The notes under the pieces: model-generated
Database searches by the model: none
What the model was told of the DNA's origin: nothing
Seen by the model: only the letters and a program-made list of their open reading frames with translations
NCBI GenBank assembly: GCA_944327225.1
Contig: CALVGZ010000002.1
Coordinates: 20,579-84,578 of the forward strand
Length of the DNA stretch: 64,000 bases
Direction of reading: 5' to 3'
From: Candidatus Gastranaerophilales bacterium
GTDB taxonomy: Bacteria; Cyanobacteriota; Vampirovibrionia; Gastranaerophilales; Gastranaerophilaceae
Part shown: positions 3,794-17,902 of the stretch, in pieces
Layout of the letters: the number at the start of each line of letters is the position of its first letter
Numbering within the stretch: position 1 is the first letter of the stretch
Translations under genes and position numbers: made by a program

Positions 3794-4507
3794 TTAAAAG
3801 AATTTTGAAAATACTTTAATATAAATTAAAAATGCTGCAATGATTAATAAAATTCCTGAAAATTTCATCAAAAATTCAGAAATATTAGCAAAATTTCTGA
3901 CCCCTTTTATAAAAGAGGTAAATATACCTGCTAAAACTACTATTACACCTTGTCCTAAAGAAAATAACAAAAGCATTAATCCCGCAAGTGCAATATTTTT
4001 ACTTAATGCAGCAAAACTCATTATTCCTGCTAAAATTGGAGTTGAGCAAGGACTTACTGCAAACGCAAATAAAACCCCCACCAAAAAGGGATATAAAAAT
4101 AAACTTTGAGAATTGCCTTTCGGCATTCTTTTAACCAACGGAGCAAGCGTAAAATCTAATATTCCAAGAAGGTTTAAGCCCATAAGAAGAATAAAAGATG
4201 CAATAAATAAAACCCAATATGAACCCCCGATTGAAACAAAGACACTTCCCGTTACGGCACAAATTACTCCGATTATAGAAAGAATTACCGCAAGCCCCAA
4301 AACAAACGAACTTAGTTGTGCGAATGTTTTTAGTTTATTACTGTCGCCGTAGCCGCCGACATATCCGACAATTAACGGCAAAATACCGATTGAACAAGGA
4401 GAAATTGAGCTCAAAATACCGCCGAGAAAGGAAACCACAAGAAACATAAGCGAGAATTCGCCGCTTGACATATATTGAACTAATTTATCCGTTAATTCTA
4501 CTATCAT
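3794..4507 (-). CDS. ccdA: CcdA/DsbD-family thiol:disulfide electron-transfer membrane protein (cytochrome c biogenesis type)
   Basis: 237-aa polytopic membrane ORF with the two conserved membrane-embedded Cys motifs (SISPCSIGILPL and AVSPCSTPILAG). Confidence 0.8.
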   Translation of the reverse strand: MIVELTDKLVQYMSSGEFSLMFLVVSFLGGILSSISPCSIGILPLIVGYVGGYGDSNKLKTFAQLSSFVLGLAVILSIIGVICAVTGSVFVSIGGSYWVLFIASFILLMGLNLLGILDFTLAPLVKRMPKGNSQSLFLYPFLVGVLFAFAVSPCSTPILAGIMSFAALSKNIALAGLMLLLFSLGQGVIVVLAGIFTSFIKGVRNFANISEFLMKFSGILLIIAAFLIYIKVFSKFF

Positions 4508-4526
4508 TTTTATATCCCGTTAAATT

Positions 4527-4952
4527 TTATTTTTCATCAATCATTTCTAATACATCAATAATTTCATCAGATGACATAGCACCTTCTTGTCTGTGGATAA
4601 CATTTCCTTGTCTGTCTATAAAAACAAGTGTCGGAACAAGGGTTACTTTATATTTTTTTATTTGTGATTTATTATAATCAATTCCTTTTCCTACATTTTC
4701 CACAACATTAATTTCTTCTACAATGACTGAACCTTTATAATTTTTCATTGCTTTATCCATTTCTGCTGCAACTTCTTTACATTCCGAACACATCGGAGAA
4801 GAAAACTTAATTACTTTTGCTTTTGCTATTTGATTTGTTTCTTTTGCTCCTTGACTTTTGCACATCATATCATTTTGTGCTTTAGCATCAAGATAAGCAT
4901 ATAAGCTTAAAGGAAGAACAAATATAAGTAATACGACAATCCAATTTTTCAT
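4527..4952 (-). CDS. secreted or membrane-anchored thioredoxin-fold thiol:disulfide oxidoreductase
   Basis: 141 aa with an N-terminal hydrophobic signal or anchor and a CxxC motif (SSPMCSECKEV) in thioredoxin context (..VPTLVFID..G). Lies 19 nt upstream of ccdA on the same strand. Confidence 0.7.
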   Translation of the reverse strand: MKNWIVVLLIFVLPLSLYAYLDAKAQNDMMCKSQGAKETNQIAKAKVIKFSSPMCSECKEVAAEMDKAMKNYKGSVIVEEINVVENVGKGIDYNKSQIKKYKVTLVPTLVFIDRQGNVIHRQEGAMSSDEIIDVLEMIDEK

Positions 4953-5017
4953 AATTTTCCCTTTATCAATTTACAAATGATTATATATTCAAAATTCAAA
5001 AATTTAAAATGGTTAAT

Positions 5018-5935
5018 TTAACTAAGCTCATTATTTGTATAATTTTGACCTTGAAAAGAATTTCTTTGAATCATTATTTTATCAATTAAATTTAAAATTT
5101 CAAAACGGCGATTAACCCATTTGGGATAAAGCGTTGTTTCACTAAAACCAGTTCCTGCTATTCTTTGAATTGTTGTTGTTTTAGGTAAAATTTCTAAAAT
5201 ATCACAAACAATTTGAGCATATTGCTCCATATTTAAAAGATAAAAAGGTTCTTTTTCGTACATTTTAGATAATGGAGAATCAGCTAAAACAGTCAACATG
5301 TGAATTTTTATTCCGTCAATTTCAAGCTCGGATAATTTTTTTGCTGTTTCGAGCATATCTTTTTTGCCTTCATTCGGAAATCCAAGAATGATATGAGCAC
5401 AAACTTTAATATTTCTTTTTTTTGTTTCAATTACCGCTCGTTTAAAACATTCAAAATCATGACCTCTATTTATTAGTTTTAAAGTTTCATTGTTGGCAGA
5501 CTGTAAGCCATATTCAATCCAAGGATGTCTATAATTTGAAATTAAATCAAGTTTTTTACTATCAACACAATCCGGACGAGTTCCTATCGAAATAGAAACT
5601 ATTTTATCATCAAAAAAAACGCTGTCATATATTTCTTTTAAACGATTAACGGGGGCATAGGTATTACTATATGACTGAAAATATGCCATAAAAGCCTCAG
5701 CTTTAAATTGTTTAGTTAATTTTTCCATACTTTCTTTTATCTGTGATTGAACAGAACTTTTAATATCACCACATCTTGAATAACTGCCCGTTTCATCACA
5801 AAAAATACATCCTCCCGCAGAAATTGTGCCATCCCTGTTAGGGCAATTAAAACCTCCGTCAAGGGTTATTTTATATACTTTTTTGTTAAAAGTTTCTTTT
5901 AAATAGCTACTGAAAGGATAATATCTTTTTTCCAT
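5018..5935 (-). CDS. radical SAM protein, TIGR01212/YhcC family
   Basis: N-terminus YLKETFNKKVYKITLDGGFNCPNRDGTISAGGCIFCDE is the characteristic family signature. 305 aa. Confidence 0.75.
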   Translation of the reverse strand: MEKRYYPFSSYLKETFNKKVYKITLDGGFNCPNRDGTISAGGCIFCDETGSYSRCGDIKSSVQSQIKESMEKLTKQFKAEAFMAYFQSYSNTYAPVNRLKEIYDSVFFDDKIVSISIGTRPDCVDSKKLDLISNYRHPWIEYGLQSANNETLKLINRGHDFECFKRAVIETKKRNIKVCAHIILGFPNEGKKDMLETAKKLSELEIDGIKIHMLTVLADSPLSKMYEKEPFYLLNMEQYAQIVCDILEILPKTTTIQRIAGTGFSETTLYPKWVNRRFEILNLIDKIMIQRNSFQGQNYTNNELS

Positions 5936-13526: not shown

Positions 13527-14413
13527 TGAAAAAATATAAAATAGCTATTACAACAGGCGATAAAAAAGGTATTGGAAAAGAACTTGTTATAAAAGCTTTA
13601 AATAAATTAAATTTTGAACGCGAAGATATTTTAATTGTCGGTGAAAAGCTTGATTTAAATTATGATTTTATTGAAATAGATGAAAAAGATAACGGAACAT
13701 TTTGTTATAAATCACTTGAAAAAGTTTGTTTTATGGCAAAACAAGGATTAATAAAAGGAATTGTAACCGCTCCAATCTCAAAGGCAGAACTTCATAAATC
13801 AGGTTATTTTTTTAACGGTCAAACAGAAATTTTAGAAAAATTACTCGCTAAAGAAAACCAAAAGGCTCAAATGCTTTTTATCGCAGACAGTTTAAGGGTG
13901 ATGCTTTTGACTCGTCATTTAGCTTTAAAAAATGTTAATTTAAGTATTGAAGATATAATTTTTAAAACTGAAATTTTAAATAATTTTTTAATTAAAAAAT
14001 GTAAAATCAAAAACCCCTTGATTGCCTTTTGTGCTTTTAATCCTCACGCAGGTGAAAACGGTATATTAGGCAGAGAAGAAATAGAAATTTTAAATCCTGC
14101 TGTTGAAATTTTAAATTCCAAAGGTATTAATATTTTAAAACCAATGAGTGCTGACGGACTTTTTGCTAAAGTCGGAAAAGATTATCTAAGTGGAAAAAAG
14201 GTTCAATATGATGCTATTTTAGCTTGTTATCATGATCAGGGATTATGCCCCGTTAAGGCTATTGCAATGGAAAAAGCAATTAATACTACAATAGGACTTG
14301 ATATAATCAGAACATCACCATCCTCGGGAACGGCCTATGATATAGTTGGAAAAAATATTGCAAATCCCAATAGCATGATTGAAGCAATAAAACTGGCTAT
14401 GAATTTAAGTTAA
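13526..14413 (+). CDS. pdxA: PdxA-family 4-hydroxythreonate-4-phosphate / 4-phosphothreonate dehydrogenase
   Basis: 295 aa. TTGDKKGIGKEL, NPHAGENG and ACYHDQGL..K motifs of the PdxA/PdxA2 family. Confidence 0.8.
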   Translation: MKKYKIAITTGDKKGIGKELVIKALNKLNFEREDILIVGEKLDLNYDFIEIDEKDNGTFCYKSLEKVCFMAKQGLIKGIVTAPISKAELHKSGYFFNGQTEILEKLLAKENQKAQMLFIADSLRVMLLTRHLALKNVNLSIEDIIFKTEILNNFLIKKCKIKNPLIAFCAFNPHAGENGILGREEIEILNPAVEILNSKGINILKPMSADGLFAKVGKDYLSGKKVQYDAILACYHDQGLCPVKAIAMEKAINTTIGLDIIRTSPSSGTAYDIVGKNIANPNSMIEAIKLAMNLS

Positions 14414-14488
14414 TTTTTTTTAAGTTAAATTGAATTTAATTTCAAACAAAACTTTTTATACTTTTAAATCCATTGAAACAAAAATTTA

Positions 14489-14510
14489 AAACGTCGCAAT
14501 CGTAGTGCTT
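14489..14510. repeat. repeat C, copy 1 (aaacgtcgcaatcgtagtgctt)
   Basis: Identical 22-mer to 14591-14612. Extends to 28 nt (14483-14510 vs 14585-14612) with 1 mismatch. Confidence 0.95.
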
Positions 14511-14534
14511 CGGGTCAAACTCAACGTTTGCCCC

Positions 14535-14556
14535 TATCGCACCGGCTTCGCGGTTC
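14535..14556. repeat. repeat B, copy 1 (tatcgcaccggcttcgcggttc)
   Basis: Identical 22-mer to 14639-14660. Confidence 0.95.
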
Positions 14557-14590
14557 TGCTCCTGTCAAATTCGCCTTCGGCAAGAATTTG

Positions 14591-14612
14591 AAACGTCGCA
14601 ATCGTAGTGCTT
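14591..14612. repeat. repeat C, copy 2
   Basis: Identical to 14489-14510; offset 102 nt. Confidence 0.95.
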
Positions 14613-14638
14613 AACTCGCTTTCTGAACGAAAGCTCGT

Positions 14639-14660
14639 TATCGCACCGGCTTCGCGGTTC
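14639..14660. repeat. repeat B, copy 2
   Basis: Identical to 14535-14556; offset 104 nt. Confidence 0.95.
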
Positions 14661-14702
14661 CTCGAGCCGTTCGCTGGACTGTCGTCCGCTCCTTGGCTCT
14701 CG
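14661..14702. repeat. repeat A, copy 1 (ctcgagccgttcgctggactgTcgtccgctccttggctctcg)
   Basis: 42-mer matching 14770-14811 with a single T/C difference, which falls in the apical tetraloop of the predicted hairpin. Confidence 0.95.
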
Positions 14703-14769
14703 TGGGGTACGGACTACGCACTTGGCACGAGCTCAACGCTCCTGCCTGCGTGCTTCGCACACCTTTGCC

Positions 14770-14811
14770 CTCGAGCCGTTCGCTGGACTGCCGTCCGCTC
14801 CTTGGCTCTCG
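14770..14811. repeat. repeat A, copy 2
   Basis: 42-mer with 1 mismatch to 14661-14702; offset 109 nt. Confidence 0.95.
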
Positions 14812-14845
14812 GGTGCAGTCGCACTACGTTTCGCTCGGCTCGGGA

Positions 14846-15712
14846 CTACATCCAATCGTTAACCTGAACTTTTTGATTTGTTTTCGTGCAAATAGTACAC
14901 TTTTCACAATCTAAATAATTAATTTTTGAACAATTACTCAAAGATGAGCCTAATCTTGCTCTATAATCATCAACCAACATTGGACAAGAATATACTCCAT
15001 TTTGCGAGACTACTCTTGAATTATAGCAATCTAACTTTTTAATTTGTATATTTTCTATCATTTCAACTTGGTTTGTTTCATCTGATTTTGAAAAGAAAGG
15101 AATAATTTTTAAATTAATATCTTCTATTTCAAAACCTTTTTTAGAAAAATAATTCCTAAATTCATTGAAAATTTCTTCCTTTGGACGATTTTTATAATTT
15201 ACAACACTAATTATCGGGTTAAATTCATATTTTAAAAGGCTCATAATAGCACAAAGTGCTTTTCTAAAACTTCCTCTGCCTCTTAATTCATCATTTTCAA
15301 TTTCATCAACCGAATCAAGACTTATTCTATAAATTGTTTCAAATTGACTTTCGTCATCAATTTTTCTCAAAAATCTTGCCTTTTTATCATTTATCATAAC
15401 CCCGTTTGACATAACCGTTGTATTTGAAATTTTAAGACACATTCTTAAAATTTGATTGAAATCGGGGTGCATTAACGGTTCTCCACCTGTTAAATATATT
15501 GAATTTAATTTTTTACCTTTAACGAGCAAAAGTGATTGTTTTATTTTATCCAAAGAAATAAAATCTTCTTCATTTCTAAAAAGATTTCTTTCTATATAAC
15601 AATATTTACATTTTAAATTGCAAGTTTTTGTACAAAGTTGAAAAAATAAATTCTGTAATTCCTCTAGTTCGACCTTCGGGGGCGTCATAAACATACTCTT
15701 TTGATTTTGCAT
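14846..15712 (-). CDS. radical SAM enzyme with C-terminal Cys-rich SPASM/twitch-like domain
   Basis: 288 aa. CNLKCKYC (CxxxCxxC) cluster motif, GGEPLMHPDF, and a C-terminal C-x9-G-x3-C ... C-x7-C-x2-C-x2-C pattern (CYNSRVVSQNGVYSCP...CSKINYLDCEKCTIC). Confidence 0.75.
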   Translation of the reverse strand: MQNQKSMFMTPPKVELEELQNLFFQLCTKTCNLKCKYCYIERNLFRNEEDFISLDKIKQSLLLVKGKKLNSIYLTGGEPLMHPDFNQILRMCLKISNTTVMSNGVMINDKKARFLRKIDDESQFETIYRISLDSVDEIENDELRGRGSFRKALCAIMSLLKYEFNPIISVVNYKNRPKEEIFNEFRNYFSKKGFEIEDINLKIIPFFSKSDETNQVEMIENIQIKKLDCYNSRVVSQNGVYSCPMLVDDYRARLGSSLSNCSKINYLDCEKCTICTKTNQKVQVNDWM

Positions 15713-15875
15713 TAGTTTTATTCTCCTTAATTTAAAAAATATTTTATAAATTAAAAATGTAAATTAAAATTAGTCATCTGGGTATATTTAAAAATCGTCG
15801 TGGAATTAAAATATTGTTTTTAACTTTCAAATTTTCTAAAAATTTGCTATACTTAGTCAAGAGAAAGGCAGACTT

Positions 15876-16205
15876 ATGAGTGAAAAAGAAAACTACAGCA
15901 AACGTTGGTATGATAAAGACCCAATTTTAAAAGAAGCACTTGAACTTTTAAAATTATCAACAGATGAACAAAAAGAACATGCCAAAGACTACATGCTCAA
16001 ATTACAAGAAGATGTAGCACAAGACGTGATCGAAAGAATTTATCAAATAGTAACCCAATATCAAGGTAAGGGAAATCGTTGGTACGATAACGACCCTGTT
16101 ATGATTAAAGCTGTTGAAATGTTAAGACAAGCAGACCCAAAAACTCAAAGAATAGCTGCCCTAAAATTACTTTTAGCACTGGAAAAAAACAGTTTTGATG
16201 ATTAA
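15876..16205 (+). CDS. hypothetical helical protein with internal duplication (RWYDxDP repeat)
   Basis: 109 aa. KRWYDKDPILKEALELLK (res ~9-26) is repeated as NRWYDNDPVMIKAVEMLR (res ~67-84). Good SD (agagaaagg). The 3' end overlaps the folE2 start by 11 nt. Confidence 0.55.
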   Translation: MSEKENYSKRWYDKDPILKEALELLKLSTDEQKEHAKDYMLKLQEDVAQDVIERIYQIVTQYQGKGNRWYDNDPVMIKAVEMLRQADPKTQRIAALKLLLALEKNSFDD

Positions 16206-16995
16206 AGATGTCCAAAATCAAAAAGATTTAAGGAATATTCCAATTCAAAAAGTCGGGGTTAAAGATGTTGAAATTCCTTTAAAAATTGAAAGGAAAACAA
16301 ATGCCGAAAAACCCGAGCTTGAAACAGTTTATGCCAAAGCTAAAATGTCTGTAAGCCTGCCTTCTCATTACAAAGGCACTCACATGTCCCGCTTTATAGA
16401 GATTTTAAATCACTATAAAAAAGAAGGTTTGTTTGCAAACGACATTGAAACCATTTTGTTTGATATGAAAAAAAGACTGGATGCTACCTGTTCATATTTA
16501 AAATTCAGTTTTAAATATTTTATAAAAAAGAAAGCACCAATAAGCAAACTTGAGTCTTTAATGTGTTACGATTGTGCTTTTGAAGGAGAATTAGACGAAA
16601 ACTGTAATTATAAATTTTACCTTATAGTTAATGTTCCGATTACAACTCTTTGCCCTTGTTCAAAAGAAATTTCGGAATTTGGAGCACATAATCAAAGAGC
16701 AATTTTAAAAATTAAAATAAGTTACGGTGAAAATGAACAAATTTGGATTGAAGATTTAATTAAAATGGCAGAAAGTTGTGCCTCATGCGAAATTTATCCT
16801 CTTTTAAAACGTCAGGATGAAAAATTTGTAACAGAAACCGCATATAAAAATCCAAAATTTGTTGAAGATGTCATAAGAGATGTAGTAATAAAATTAAACG
16901 AAAACAAAAAAATTATTTTCTATGAAGTTGAAATGGAAGCGTTTGAATCTATACACAACCATAACGCTTGGGCTTACCAAAAATGTTACAAATAA
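16195..16995 (+). CDS. folE2: GTP cyclohydrolase I type 2 (GCYH-IB / FolE2)
   Basis: 266 aa. KGTHMSRF, TLCPCSKEIS..GAHNQR motifs typical of FolE2/MptA. Confidence 0.88.
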   Translation: MMIKDVQNQKDLRNIPIQKVGVKDVEIPLKIERKTNAEKPELETVYAKAKMSVSLPSHYKGTHMSRFIEILNHYKKEGLFANDIETILFDMKKRLDATCSYLKFSFKYFIKKKAPISKLESLMCYDCAFEGELDENCNYKFYLIVNVPITTLCPCSKEISEFGAHNQRAILKIKISYGENEQIWIEDLIKMAESCASCEIYPLLKRQDEKFVTETAYKNPKFVEDVIRDVVIKLNENKKIIFYEVEMEAFESIHNHNAWAYQKCYK

Positions 16996-17008
16996 GTTAT
17001 AATAAAGT

Positions 17009-17902
17009 ATGATTGAAATTAAGAACATAGTTTTTGTTAACTGTAATTTAAACCCTATAAGGGAATTTTTGTGTTTTATTAATCACCTTTTACCCTTAAA
17101 GTTAAAATTTGCAAATGAAAGCTTTGTTGCCCTTGTAGATAAAAAAAATCAAGGATTAATTACTCTTGATAAAGATTCAAAAAGCCATACTCGTTTTAAA
17201 ATAACAAAATTAATTTTGGAAGAAAACTCTGCAGATATTGCTCATCAACTGGTAAATTATGTAATTTCAAGATACAGAGCTATGGGAGCTAATTCTTTTT
17301 ATGTTGTTGTCAATGAAAAAAGAGCTGATTTATTAAACATTTTCAGAAATGATTTAAACTTCAGAAACTGCGGTTTTGAATATCTTTATAAAATTAATTC
17401 AATAAATACAAGCTATTCATTATTCTTAAAACCTTTTAAAAAAGAATTTGTAAAAGAAGTTTGCAATTTTTATAATGAAGGTATAAATTCCTTCAACAGA
17501 TTTTTATTTGCAAGACAAAATTATCAATTTTTGAACAAATGTTATAAATATATATTTTATGATGACAATAACAAAATTTTAGGATATTTTGAAGTAGCAA
17601 CAAAAAATAACCACGATTTTTACATTAATTTTACAATAGATTTCGCATATAACATATATTTAACAGATGCTATTAAATTTATTTATTCAAAATTATCCCA
17701 AAAAGCAAAAAACTTTAATTTATATATTAAAGTTAAAGACTATTTTATGAATTCAAAAGAACTTCTTGCAATTTTAAACGAAAACAACATGGAATTTATT
17801 TCTAAAAGTCAAATTCTAGCAAAAGACTATTATAGAGAAATTAAACAAGATAATATTTTAAAAAATGCAAAAATTATCTTTAATGACCCAACAACAGCTT
17901 AA
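17009..17902 (+). CDS. hypothetical protein (possibly GNAT-like fold)
   Basis: 297-aa intact ORF with no motif I can assign confidently. The segment ..LVNYVISRYRAMGANSFYVVV.. is weakly acetyltransferase-like. Confidence 0.4.
   Translation: MIEIKNIVFVNCNLNPIREFLCFINHLLPLKLKFANESFVALVDKKNQGLITLDKDSKSHTRFKITKLILEENSADIAHQLVNYVISRYRAMGANSFYVVVNEKRADLLNIFRNDLNFRNCGFEYLYKINSINTSYSLFLKPFKKEFVKEVCNFYNEGINSFNRFLFARQNYQFLNKCYKYIFYDDNNKILGYFEVATKNNHDFYINFTIDFAYNIYLTDAIKFIYSKLSQKAKNFNLYIKVKDYFMNSKELLAILNENNMEFISKSQILAKDYYREIKQDNILKNAKIIFNDPTTA

Follow-up and report, generated by a model that had tools for sequence, protein, structure and literature searches.

Within the 64,000 nt of Candidatus Gastranaerophilales DNA analyzed here (contig CALVGZ010000002.1; the whole stretch is referred to as the window), a single short island between two convergent genes stands out by its high GC content, which raises the question of what kind of element it is. 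An earlier note, made from the letters alone, had proposed an internally duplicated, unclassified structured RNA at positions 14483–14845. This interval has a GC content of 58%, as opposed to 28.8% for the whole window and 14% for the adjoining spacer 14414–14482. Among the 21 intergenic regions longer than 40 nt, it alone exceeds 26% GC (the other 20 range from 6 to 26%), and its description as the sole strongly GC-rich stretch of the 64 kb holds. The G+C counts given for rows 14521–14580, 14641–14700 and 14701–14760 (35/60, 40/60 and 39/60) are exact on recount. The island fills the gap between the stop of pdxA, which ends at 14413, and the TAG that terminates a minus-strand radical SAM gene at 14846–14848. 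Both coordinates stand; the SPASM label attached to the latter gene is not supported, as Pfam calls Radical_SAM and Fer4_12 only and the protein stays below the cut-off of every NCBIfam model. The duplication of three modules, A (41/42 identical between copies), B (22/22) and C (22/22), is reproduced exactly, although an extension of C to 27/28 is not (26/29 on the span tried). B and C have no further match in the window even with three mismatches allowed (0 expected in shuffles).

The island most plausibly represents one locus of a new family of co-transcribed modular interspersed repeats, a reading to which we assign a probability of roughly 0.6. Modules with a conserved, strand-specific secondary structure recur at many loci, where they form mosaic, strain-variable arrays at gene ends and in operon spacers.

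Structure and strand of the modules

The canonical unit of the family measures ~110 nt and consists of a rod hairpin (H), a CAWA linker and a three-helix module (U) of 58–61 nt, with the accessory modules y, v and the U-like u interleaved with H-U (Table 1). Modules A, B and C of the earlier note are fragments of these H, u and y units. In the window, U is composed of P1 (GGUGUG/CGUACC, including G.U and U.G pairs), P2 (GCAC/GUGC) and P3, which ends in an apical GC-GUUGA-GC. Copy 1 of the H rod reads CCC-GA-GAGCC ... GGAC-GGCA-GUCC ... GGCUC-GA-GGG, and copy 2 differs from it solely in the apical loop (GACA vs GGCA). The two U-like hairpins u1 and u2 have common flanks, different self-complementary apical stems and nearly equal loops (GUUGA vs GUUCA); u2 is arranged as CGCGA..GGUGC..[GCUUUC-GUUCA-GAAAGC]..GCACU..UUGCG, while B copy 1 and a portion of C copy 1 fall within u1. 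Both in the window and at locus L059, U copies that differ from one another are flanked by H copies that are identical.

The structure of U is backed by covariation. A covariance model was built on six U copies and aligned to 29 matches, 26 of them distinct. In this alignment, 92.7% of 423 cells are paired and 8/17 pairs are changed on both sides (73 cells), which yields a covariation score of 0.42 vs 0.10 in shuffles, none of 500 reaching 0.42; with the partners slid as a control, 20–47% of cells are paired. The covarying inner positions of P2 and P3 are not fixed by the pattern used to search for further loci. A separate RNAalifold run on the U alignment likewise finds eight covarying pairs and adds a pair at columns 7–54 (U-A in 13, C-G in 12), which modifies the P1/P2 junction. 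For H, 14/14 variants from different loci fold to one architecture. It comprises, in order, CCC/GGG, a tandem G.A/A.G, two to five covarying pairs, then an internal loop followed by GC/GC and, beyond a second loop (2x2), an apical hairpin that varies. The tandem G.A/A.G is found in 12 of these 14 variants, and one variant is Watson-Crick instead.

The structured strand, which had been left unidentified, is the minus strand. Pairing of U drops to 82.0% in the antisense direction because the pairs G4.U and U5.G are near-invariant (U.G changes to U-A in four sequences). Furthermore, the sense strand is the more stable one in 5/5 arrays and for 14/14 H modules, and the folding z-score of the island is -5.3 on the minus strand vs -3.0 on the plus strand. 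The modules show no exact match to the known motifs K-turn, loop E or boxA/B.

Mosaic arrays at one site and at unrelated loci

Further strains were found via cluster members of the radical SAM protein of the window. At this site all arrays begin 1 nt past the stop with CCCGAGC..., and their content varies: scaffold_90 (L001/L006, another sample) is without exactly the 104-nt u2-y unit, a 112-nt H0-U unit is present 0.6, 1.6 or 2.3 times among strains that encode an identical radical SAM protein, and L044 presents yet another module mosaic. A full H0 occupies the equivalent position in L029, L030, L044 and the metagenome-assembled genome (MAG) BRZ_N_bin63. The flanks of bin63 are 94% identical to those of the window, and its array exceeds 670 nt, is split over two contig ends and contains additional module types (U5, U6, v and repeated y). 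The part of the array shared with the window is 92.6% identical, as compared to 93.9% for the coding flank. Apart from four chance matches in GC-rich phyla, a genome-collection scan with a 20-mer of B hit bin63 only, where the 20-mer is confined to the two array ends; the idea that B is a dispersed repeat of its own was therefore rejected.

The distal neighbor of the array changes with the lineage and is pdxA, a 348-aa gene with radA, a helix-turn-helix (HTH) gene, a MiaB-like gene or a 322-aa gene. The array is absent at the site in relatives whose radical SAM protein is 76–88% identical. In one lineage (L039–L043) the "empty" site measures 48 nt and keeps AAUUUUAAGC-GUUGA-GCUUGAAAAUU, a match to the apex of U; the window has no other occurrence of the 9-mer GCGTTGAGC.

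Several side observations concern the surroundings of this site. L029 and L030 share an identical radical SAM protein, and a three-gene block (HTH_19, TRL, TRL; L029:3620-4765), which sits between the array and the MiaB-like gene, is missing in L030, so that the indel abuts the distal array end. In the window, AT-only inverted and direct repeats (AATTTAAGTTAA / TTAAGTTAAATT, among others) lie at 14402–14450, right after the pdxA stop, and a similar AT-rich stretch follows the L029 array; the repeats at 14402–14450 may be a bidirectional terminator or a decayed module. The radical SAM gene lies beside a divergent 109-aa gene, folE2 and a 297-aa gene (14846–17902), and the radical SAM-folE2 block is conserved in the close relatives L001, L013, L025, L029 and L039. 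In L013 (radical SAM protein 84% identical), a convergent gene for a 403-aa Cys- and Ser-rich repeat protein is found at 3971–5182, the 3′ 250 nt of which are 63% GC in a 33% GC locus, possibly as acquired DNA. The island as a relic of this GC-rich gene was rejected, as the sequences are unrelated.

Outside the radical SAM site, homologues were sought in metagenomes with the pattern GGTGTGYG-N(10-22)-GCGTTGAGC-N(12-28)-CCRTACC. The scan returned 26 loci, of which 10 are chance occurrences in GC-rich coding DNA and 16 are clear homologues in AT-rich contigs. Two loci are assigned to Gastranaerophilales, namely L060, which encodes a protein 85% identical to a gene of the window, and L063, whose kinase has 86% identical homologues named Gastranaerophilales. 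For the window itself, the closest homologues of the radical SAM protein carry the name Candidatus Gastranaerophilales, and all loci for which the organism was checked belong to this group. The arrays are located in rRNA and ribosomal-protein operons, beside small RNA and tRNA genes and in 3′ untranslated regions (3′UTRs; Table 1). In the orthologous regulator-kinase spacer of a relative of L063 (kinase 86% identical), H0 stands alone, that is, this spacer holds H only in one species and U and y in another. A y-type module follows U in L050, L055, L056 and bin63. Two contigs (L052 and L070) each hold two separate loci, 2–4 kb apart and in opposite orientation, whereas the window contains a single U in 64 kb: with filters off, the covariance model finds no second U there and nothing else above noise. 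Short-word blastn of the window and the relatives' loci returns AT-rich chance matches only and no further copies, and module A has no match in JGI metagenomes. No description of the H/U family was found in the literature consulted.

All H, U, u and y modules of an array lie on one strand, and the arrays share a fixed 5′ start and a truncated 3′ end, in that (H-U)n is followed by an incomplete H, U or y; truncated ends like that of the window array are seen at other loci. Where both neighboring genes point in the same direction, the element is sense to them in 8/9 cases (L030, L050, L054, L064, L063, L073, L070-U1 and L066), and in L052 and L070 each locus is sense to its own gene. The array starts 0–2 nt past a same-sense stop codon in the window, bin63, L029/L030/L044, L064, L052, L056 and L048, overlaps the stop codon in L063 and, at both L070 loci, supplies the final codons and the stop through the 5′ arm of H. 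At L070-U2 the array comes after the stop codon and ahead of a canonical intrinsic terminator, and a sense terminator also follows the L059 array. For the island itself, no promoter-like site is seen in the window, and a terminator scanner reports none within 14300–15000, u1 with UUUUAAAUUUUUGUUU being beyond the loop limit of the scanner. As a separate feature of the window, the cumulative GC skew reaches its minimum at ~33–34 kb and then rises steadily to the window end, which could reflect a replication origin or a mere switch in gene orientation.

Further side observations were made at individual loci. In L066 (620–975), the first 13 nt of tRNA-Val together with ~20 nt upstream are present three times; between them lie an H0-U unit and a structured insert that lacks U, and the intact tRNA follows the last copy. 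In the orthologous loci L065/L067, ~180 nt upstream of U, a conserved, GC-richer RNA-like region (…CCGGGAGA…GCCC…CCCGGCG…CACCCACCUGC…GGGCAGGAAACAAAAUUGCC…) precedes a terminator-like H2 and has no family in Rfam. The direct repeats flanking the L065/L067 array were considered as a long target duplication and rejected, because the terminator-like H2 recurs at unrelated loci (L052-U2, L050 and L055). The unrelated contigs L044 (~2560–2680) and L053 (oriented ~870–960) have GTACAAGTTGTTCTCTTTTCCACTCCTTCCTCCATATGCAGATTTTATAGCATTA in common, followed by a terminator hairpin; in L053 the array directly follows this segment, a candidate 3′ end for a small RNA that has no annotation. Finally, the distal H/U copy of L070-U2 (L070:2650-2780, minus strand) is still recognizable but mutated to A/T (ACCGAAAGGUAAAGAG…AAGGCAAAGUAUGAUAU), which suggests that GC-richness lasts only in young or selected copies.

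Table 1. Modules of the island (window coordinates) and placement of arrays of the same family at other loci.
Feature	Position or context	Strand	Remark
Radical SAM TAG stop	14846–14848	-	gene 14846–15712; array begins 1 nt downstream
Partial H0, CCCGAGCCGAGCGAAACGUAGUGCGACUGCAC	14813–14844	-	5′ arm and apical GUGC-GACU-GCAC hairpin
H, A type, copy 1	14768–14813	-	contains module A, 14770–14811
CAAA linker, H to U	14764–14767	-	CAWA at most loci of the family
U	14706–14763	-	covariance-model match, 74.5 bits, E 5.5e-19 (E-values of the model are rough)
H, A type, copy 2	14660–14704	-	contains module A, 14661–14702
u2, U-like long hairpin	14600–14659	-	holds B copy 2 and part of C copy 2
y	14557–14599	-	GCGACGUUUC-AAAUUC..GCC-GAA-GGC..GAAUUUG-ACAGGAGCA
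u1, second U-like hairpin	14498–14556	-	apical stem GGGGCAAAC-GUUGA-GUUUGACCC; weak model match 14505–14542
3′-truncated y, GCGACGUUUUAAAUU	14483–14497	-	array end; enters U-rich tract UUUUAAAUUUUUGUUU
Spacer to pdxA stop	14414–14482		14% GC; outside the element
L050	16S-23S rRNA spacer
L055	just upstream of 23S
L064	between rpsH and rplF
L056	after rplF
L070	before rpsU
L060	upstream of rpsE
L054	between signal recognition particle (SRP) RNA and tRNA-Leu
L066	before tRNA-Val		tRNA 5′ part in three copies
L063	between response regulator and kinase
L065/L067, L053	after RNA-like regions
Other loci	3′UTRs after NrdG-like gene, CdaA-like gene and others

Weighing of the explanations

If the island is a locus of co-transcribed repeats, the array would form a structured 3′UTR of the radical SAM mRNA through read-through and, once transcribed, would fold to a string of stable hairpins. 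We infer both co-transcription with the host unit and RNA folding from the placement and strand of the modules. The u1 hairpin together with the U-tract probably ends the transcript or shields its 3′ end. Arrays would change by recombination or slippage between identical modules, and the family may be kept mainly as a tolerated or selfish repeat that spreads.

A number of observations weigh against this explanation. The number of copies per genome may be low, since there is one locus in 64 kb and the B 20-mer of bin63 is confined to the array ends. No transposase, terminal inverted repeat (TIR) or short target duplication was found that would account for mobility. That the GUUGA loop, the G.U pairs and the tandem G.A are strongly conserved is suggestive of a specific binding partner and thus of a function. 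L059, the antisense exception among the nine informative loci, lies between the terminator of a thioredoxin-like gene and the promoter of groES; it is antisense to both neighbors and appears to stand alone with a terminator of its own following on the sense strand. L060 has promoter-like hexamers upstream, and these two loci fit an RNA gene better than a passive repeat. Concerning the alignment, that of U (A3) was fitted to the covariance model, and the conservation of P1 and the apical loop is partly ascertainment because the search pattern fixed both.

A possible though clearly less probable explanation is that the modules are a functional cis-acting RNA cassette and that selection keeps the arrays. 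Candidate roles include stabilization or termination at the 3′ end, RNase processing of polycistronic and rRNA precursors, binding of a protein that recognizes the GC-GUUGA-GC hairpin and the tandem-G.A rods, and put-like processive antitermination. Such a role would agree with the strong covariation and the invariant loop and G.U pairs, with the sense orientation in 8/9 informative contexts and with the location in highly expressed operons (rRNA spacer, ribosomal-protein genes, tRNA leader and SRP RNA). Moreover, the site is kept across lineages diverged by 6–12% while its content changes, and the shared array is conserved between the window and bin63 about as well as the coding flank. However, presence and copy number vary between near-identical strains and relatives do without the array, the orthologous regulator-kinase spacer contains H only in one species and U with y in another, the distal copy of L070 is decaying to AT, and K-turn, loop E and boxA/B are not matched exactly.

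Two further explanations are each unlikely. The first takes H-U as a transcription-linked element, either a structured RNA cassette copied into the transcripts of strongly expressed genes via an RNA-mediated or concatemer (rolling-circle-like) route or, in a second version of the same doubtful reading, a protein-binding motif (GC-GUUGA-GC hairpin plus tandem-G.A rod) with a dedicated partner in Gastranaerophilales. The RNA-mediated or concatemer version would account for the sense orientation, for the fixed 5′ start at or over stop codons, for the truncation at the 3′ end and for the duplicated 5′ part of tRNA-Val. The second, equally improbable, assumes that the hairpins act as single-stranded DNA (ssDNA) and that the arrays are a non-autonomous mobile element moved by a hairpin-recognizing enzyme such as REP/RAYT, an IS200/IS605-type TnpA or a rolling-circle HUH nickase; in that case the bias in strand would stem from the choice of a DNA strand instead of from transcription. 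The modules are indeed GC-rich imperfect palindromes in extragenic space, and u1, u2 and U all contain GCGAAGC, a heptamer that forms a very stable mini-hairpin in DNA. In addition, the 5′-Y-GA-R tandem G.A is stable in DNA also, GTAG-like motifs are present (CGTAGTGC), and the fixed 5′ start with a truncated 3′ end fits a defined nick with imprecise termination. On the other hand, the modules of an array are co-oriented, which sets them apart from BIMEs and REPIN doublets, GTAG lacks conservation and reads GCAG in bin63, and arrays start exactly at stop codons or supply them. Orientation by replication strand is disfavored by the two contigs with opposite loci 2–4 kb apart, each sense to its own gene. 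Finally, no transposase gene occurs in any retrieved flank, and five scans of 2.9 million IMG/VR viral contigs (modules A, B, C, U and H-U) recovered no copies.

The reading of the earlier note, which takes the island for a discrete gene encoding a new class of structured non-coding RNA that acts in trans, has become improbable. Its structural part stands, as the helices are conserved and supported by covariation, the island is GC-rich in an AT-rich genome, and no Rfam family matches; the stand-alone appearance of L059 and L060 also speaks in its favor. The part that does not stand is the single discrete gene. The array does not behave as a single-copy RNA gene: it varies by strain, with module number and order changing within one species-level clade, is missing in relatives, and consists of module types that recur at unrelated loci, embedded in rRNA spacers and operons. 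Besides, it has no promoter-like site and abuts the stop of the upstream gene.

With regard to known classes, the claim that the island is non-coding and outside known RNA families is borne out by the searches. Rfam 15 yields at E<=10 only chance matches of the island to eukaryotic lncRNA and miRNA models (<=18 bits), and at the gathering threshold there are no matches in the whole window; the bin63 array has none either. ARAGORN predicts no tRNA or tmRNA gene in the 64 kb. Pfam has no match for the open reading frames (ORFs) of the island on either strand; these include long ones on the plus strand and, contrary to the statement that the minus strand lacks a meaningful frame, two of 40 aa on the minus strand. 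Neither a conserved frame nor a read-through extension is present, the window and bin63 having different sequences past the stop. Units of 104, 109 and 112 nt do not divide by three, whereas the 105-nt unit of bin63 does.

Other candidate systems were considered and rejected. The copies do not differ at A positions as expected of the template and variable repeats of a diversity-generating retroelement (DGR), and there is no Rfam signal for a retron, a hammerhead or hairpin ribozyme or a group II intron domain V. A canonical K-turn is precluded by extra nucleotides in the strands and a tRNA-like minihelix by the base-paired ACC, while TIGR or box C/D-like arrays were dismissed as no protein gene is adjacent. 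CRISPR does not apply, as the spacing is irregular, the "spacers" are themselves repeated and structured, and the neighbors are housekeeping genes. GTTGAGC fits the GTTRRRY of integron attC sites but lies in a hairpin loop or 3′ arm with no matching RYYYAAC, and no integrase is found in the array flanks. A type III toxin-antitoxin system (ToxI-like) was rejected in view of the neighbors, which are pdxA, a D-threonate-kinase-like gene, the radical SAM gene and folE2.

Although the foreign composition and the long plus-strand ORFs would suit an artefact (a chimeric assembly, high-GC DNA of foreign origin, a piece of rRNA, or a protein-coding gene, whether real or decayed), this last possibility is, as far as sequence data go, already refuted, since the island with both junctions is recovered from independent assemblies of several samples in two sample sets from different studies, which excludes a chimera, sensitive blastn against phage and plasmid collections and the Rfam and Pfam searches are empty, the majority of unit lengths do not divide by three, and many AT-rich contigs carry homologous modules. 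Contigs often end within the array, and scaffold L033 has an N-gap there, as expected from the internal repeats.

Significance and likeness to known repeats

Gastranaerophilales are uncultured gut relatives of cyanobacteria known from metagenome bins only, and the family appears to be the first small structured repeat described from them. Its arrays break contigs and collapse in assemblies, thereby affecting MAG quality, but they also mark sites where gene order differs between lineages and offer strain markers of the variable-number tandem repeat (VNTR) type. The covariation, the conserved loop, the G.U pairs and the tandem G.A point to specific recognition of RNA (or ssDNA). For screens that look for non-coding RNAs among the GC-rich intergenic regions of AT-rich genomes, the island is a reason for caution, because structured repeats pass that filter.

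Among known repeats, BOX elements share the modular build (boxA-boxB(n)-boxC), in which the number of internal copies varies between strains; they are predicted to form stem-loops, are often co-transcribed and can create spurious ORFs (PMC3049150). The family described here likewise has an internal tandem module with a strain-variable copy number, and a spurious ORF of 159 aa is called on the L044 array. Unlike the BOX elements of Streptococcus, which have boxA and boxC as TIRs, its modules are co-oriented, and neither TIRs nor a short target-site duplication were found, the arrays ending instead in a truncated copy of the first module. Further differences from BOX are the GC-richness of the modules against a genome of 29% GC, the tandem-G.A rods and the conservation of the GUUGA loop; no sequence resemblance was noticed, no formal comparison having been made.

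The REPs of enterobacteria are 20–40 nt long, carry a conserved GTAG, alternate in orientation within BIMEs, reach hundreds of copies and are linked to RAYT. In contrast, the modules here measure 43–61 nt and keep one orientation, CGTAGTGC is present in some but replaced by GCAG in bin63, the 64 kb contain a single locus, and the flanks show no RAYT. L052 and L070 each have two loci within 5 kb. What both have in common are GC-rich imperfect palindromes in extragenic positions that form a mosaic of several motif types. REP and BIME sequences are often located after stop codons and between convergent genes, are transcribed within 3′UTRs and can stabilize or attenuate transcripts (PMC3049150, PMC3184786).

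The family also resembles MIRUs in having tandem units at several intergenic loci, with a variable number and oriented with the operon. Supply and colleagues (1997) reportedly described MIRUs as oriented with the operon and overlapping the flanking stop and start codons. Whereas MIRUs are believed to carry short in-frame ORFs for translational coupling, most units here are not multiples of three and have no conserved frame, the conserved feature being an RNA-type secondary structure with covariation. MIRU-VNTRs comprise tandem repeats of 46–101 bp at tens of loci with strain-variable copy number (PMC3914561). The first ones came to light in the spacer of a two-component-system operon, a setting in which the present family likewise occurs (L063/L073). 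Correia elements of Neisseria and ERIC are small repeats in transcribed regions as well, and their hairpins are cut by RNase III or RNase E, which alters the expression of co-transcribed genes (PMC3049150). They differ in being single units in either orientation that resemble MITEs (miniature inverted-repeat transposable elements), with TIRs and target duplications.

By analogy only, the family can be likened to the GC clusters of yeast mitochondrial DNA, which are short, GC-rich, palindromic, non-coding and strain-polymorphic sequences in a very AT-rich genome. These clusters are organellar and very dense and have neither a defined multi-helix architecture nor a sense-strand bias. Since it lacks TIRs, alternating orientation and a conserved GTAG, and its units are mostly non-triplet, the family is no member of BOX, BIME/REP, Correia or MIRU; by analogy, it nevertheless appears to behave as these repeats do (PMC3049150, PMC3914561).

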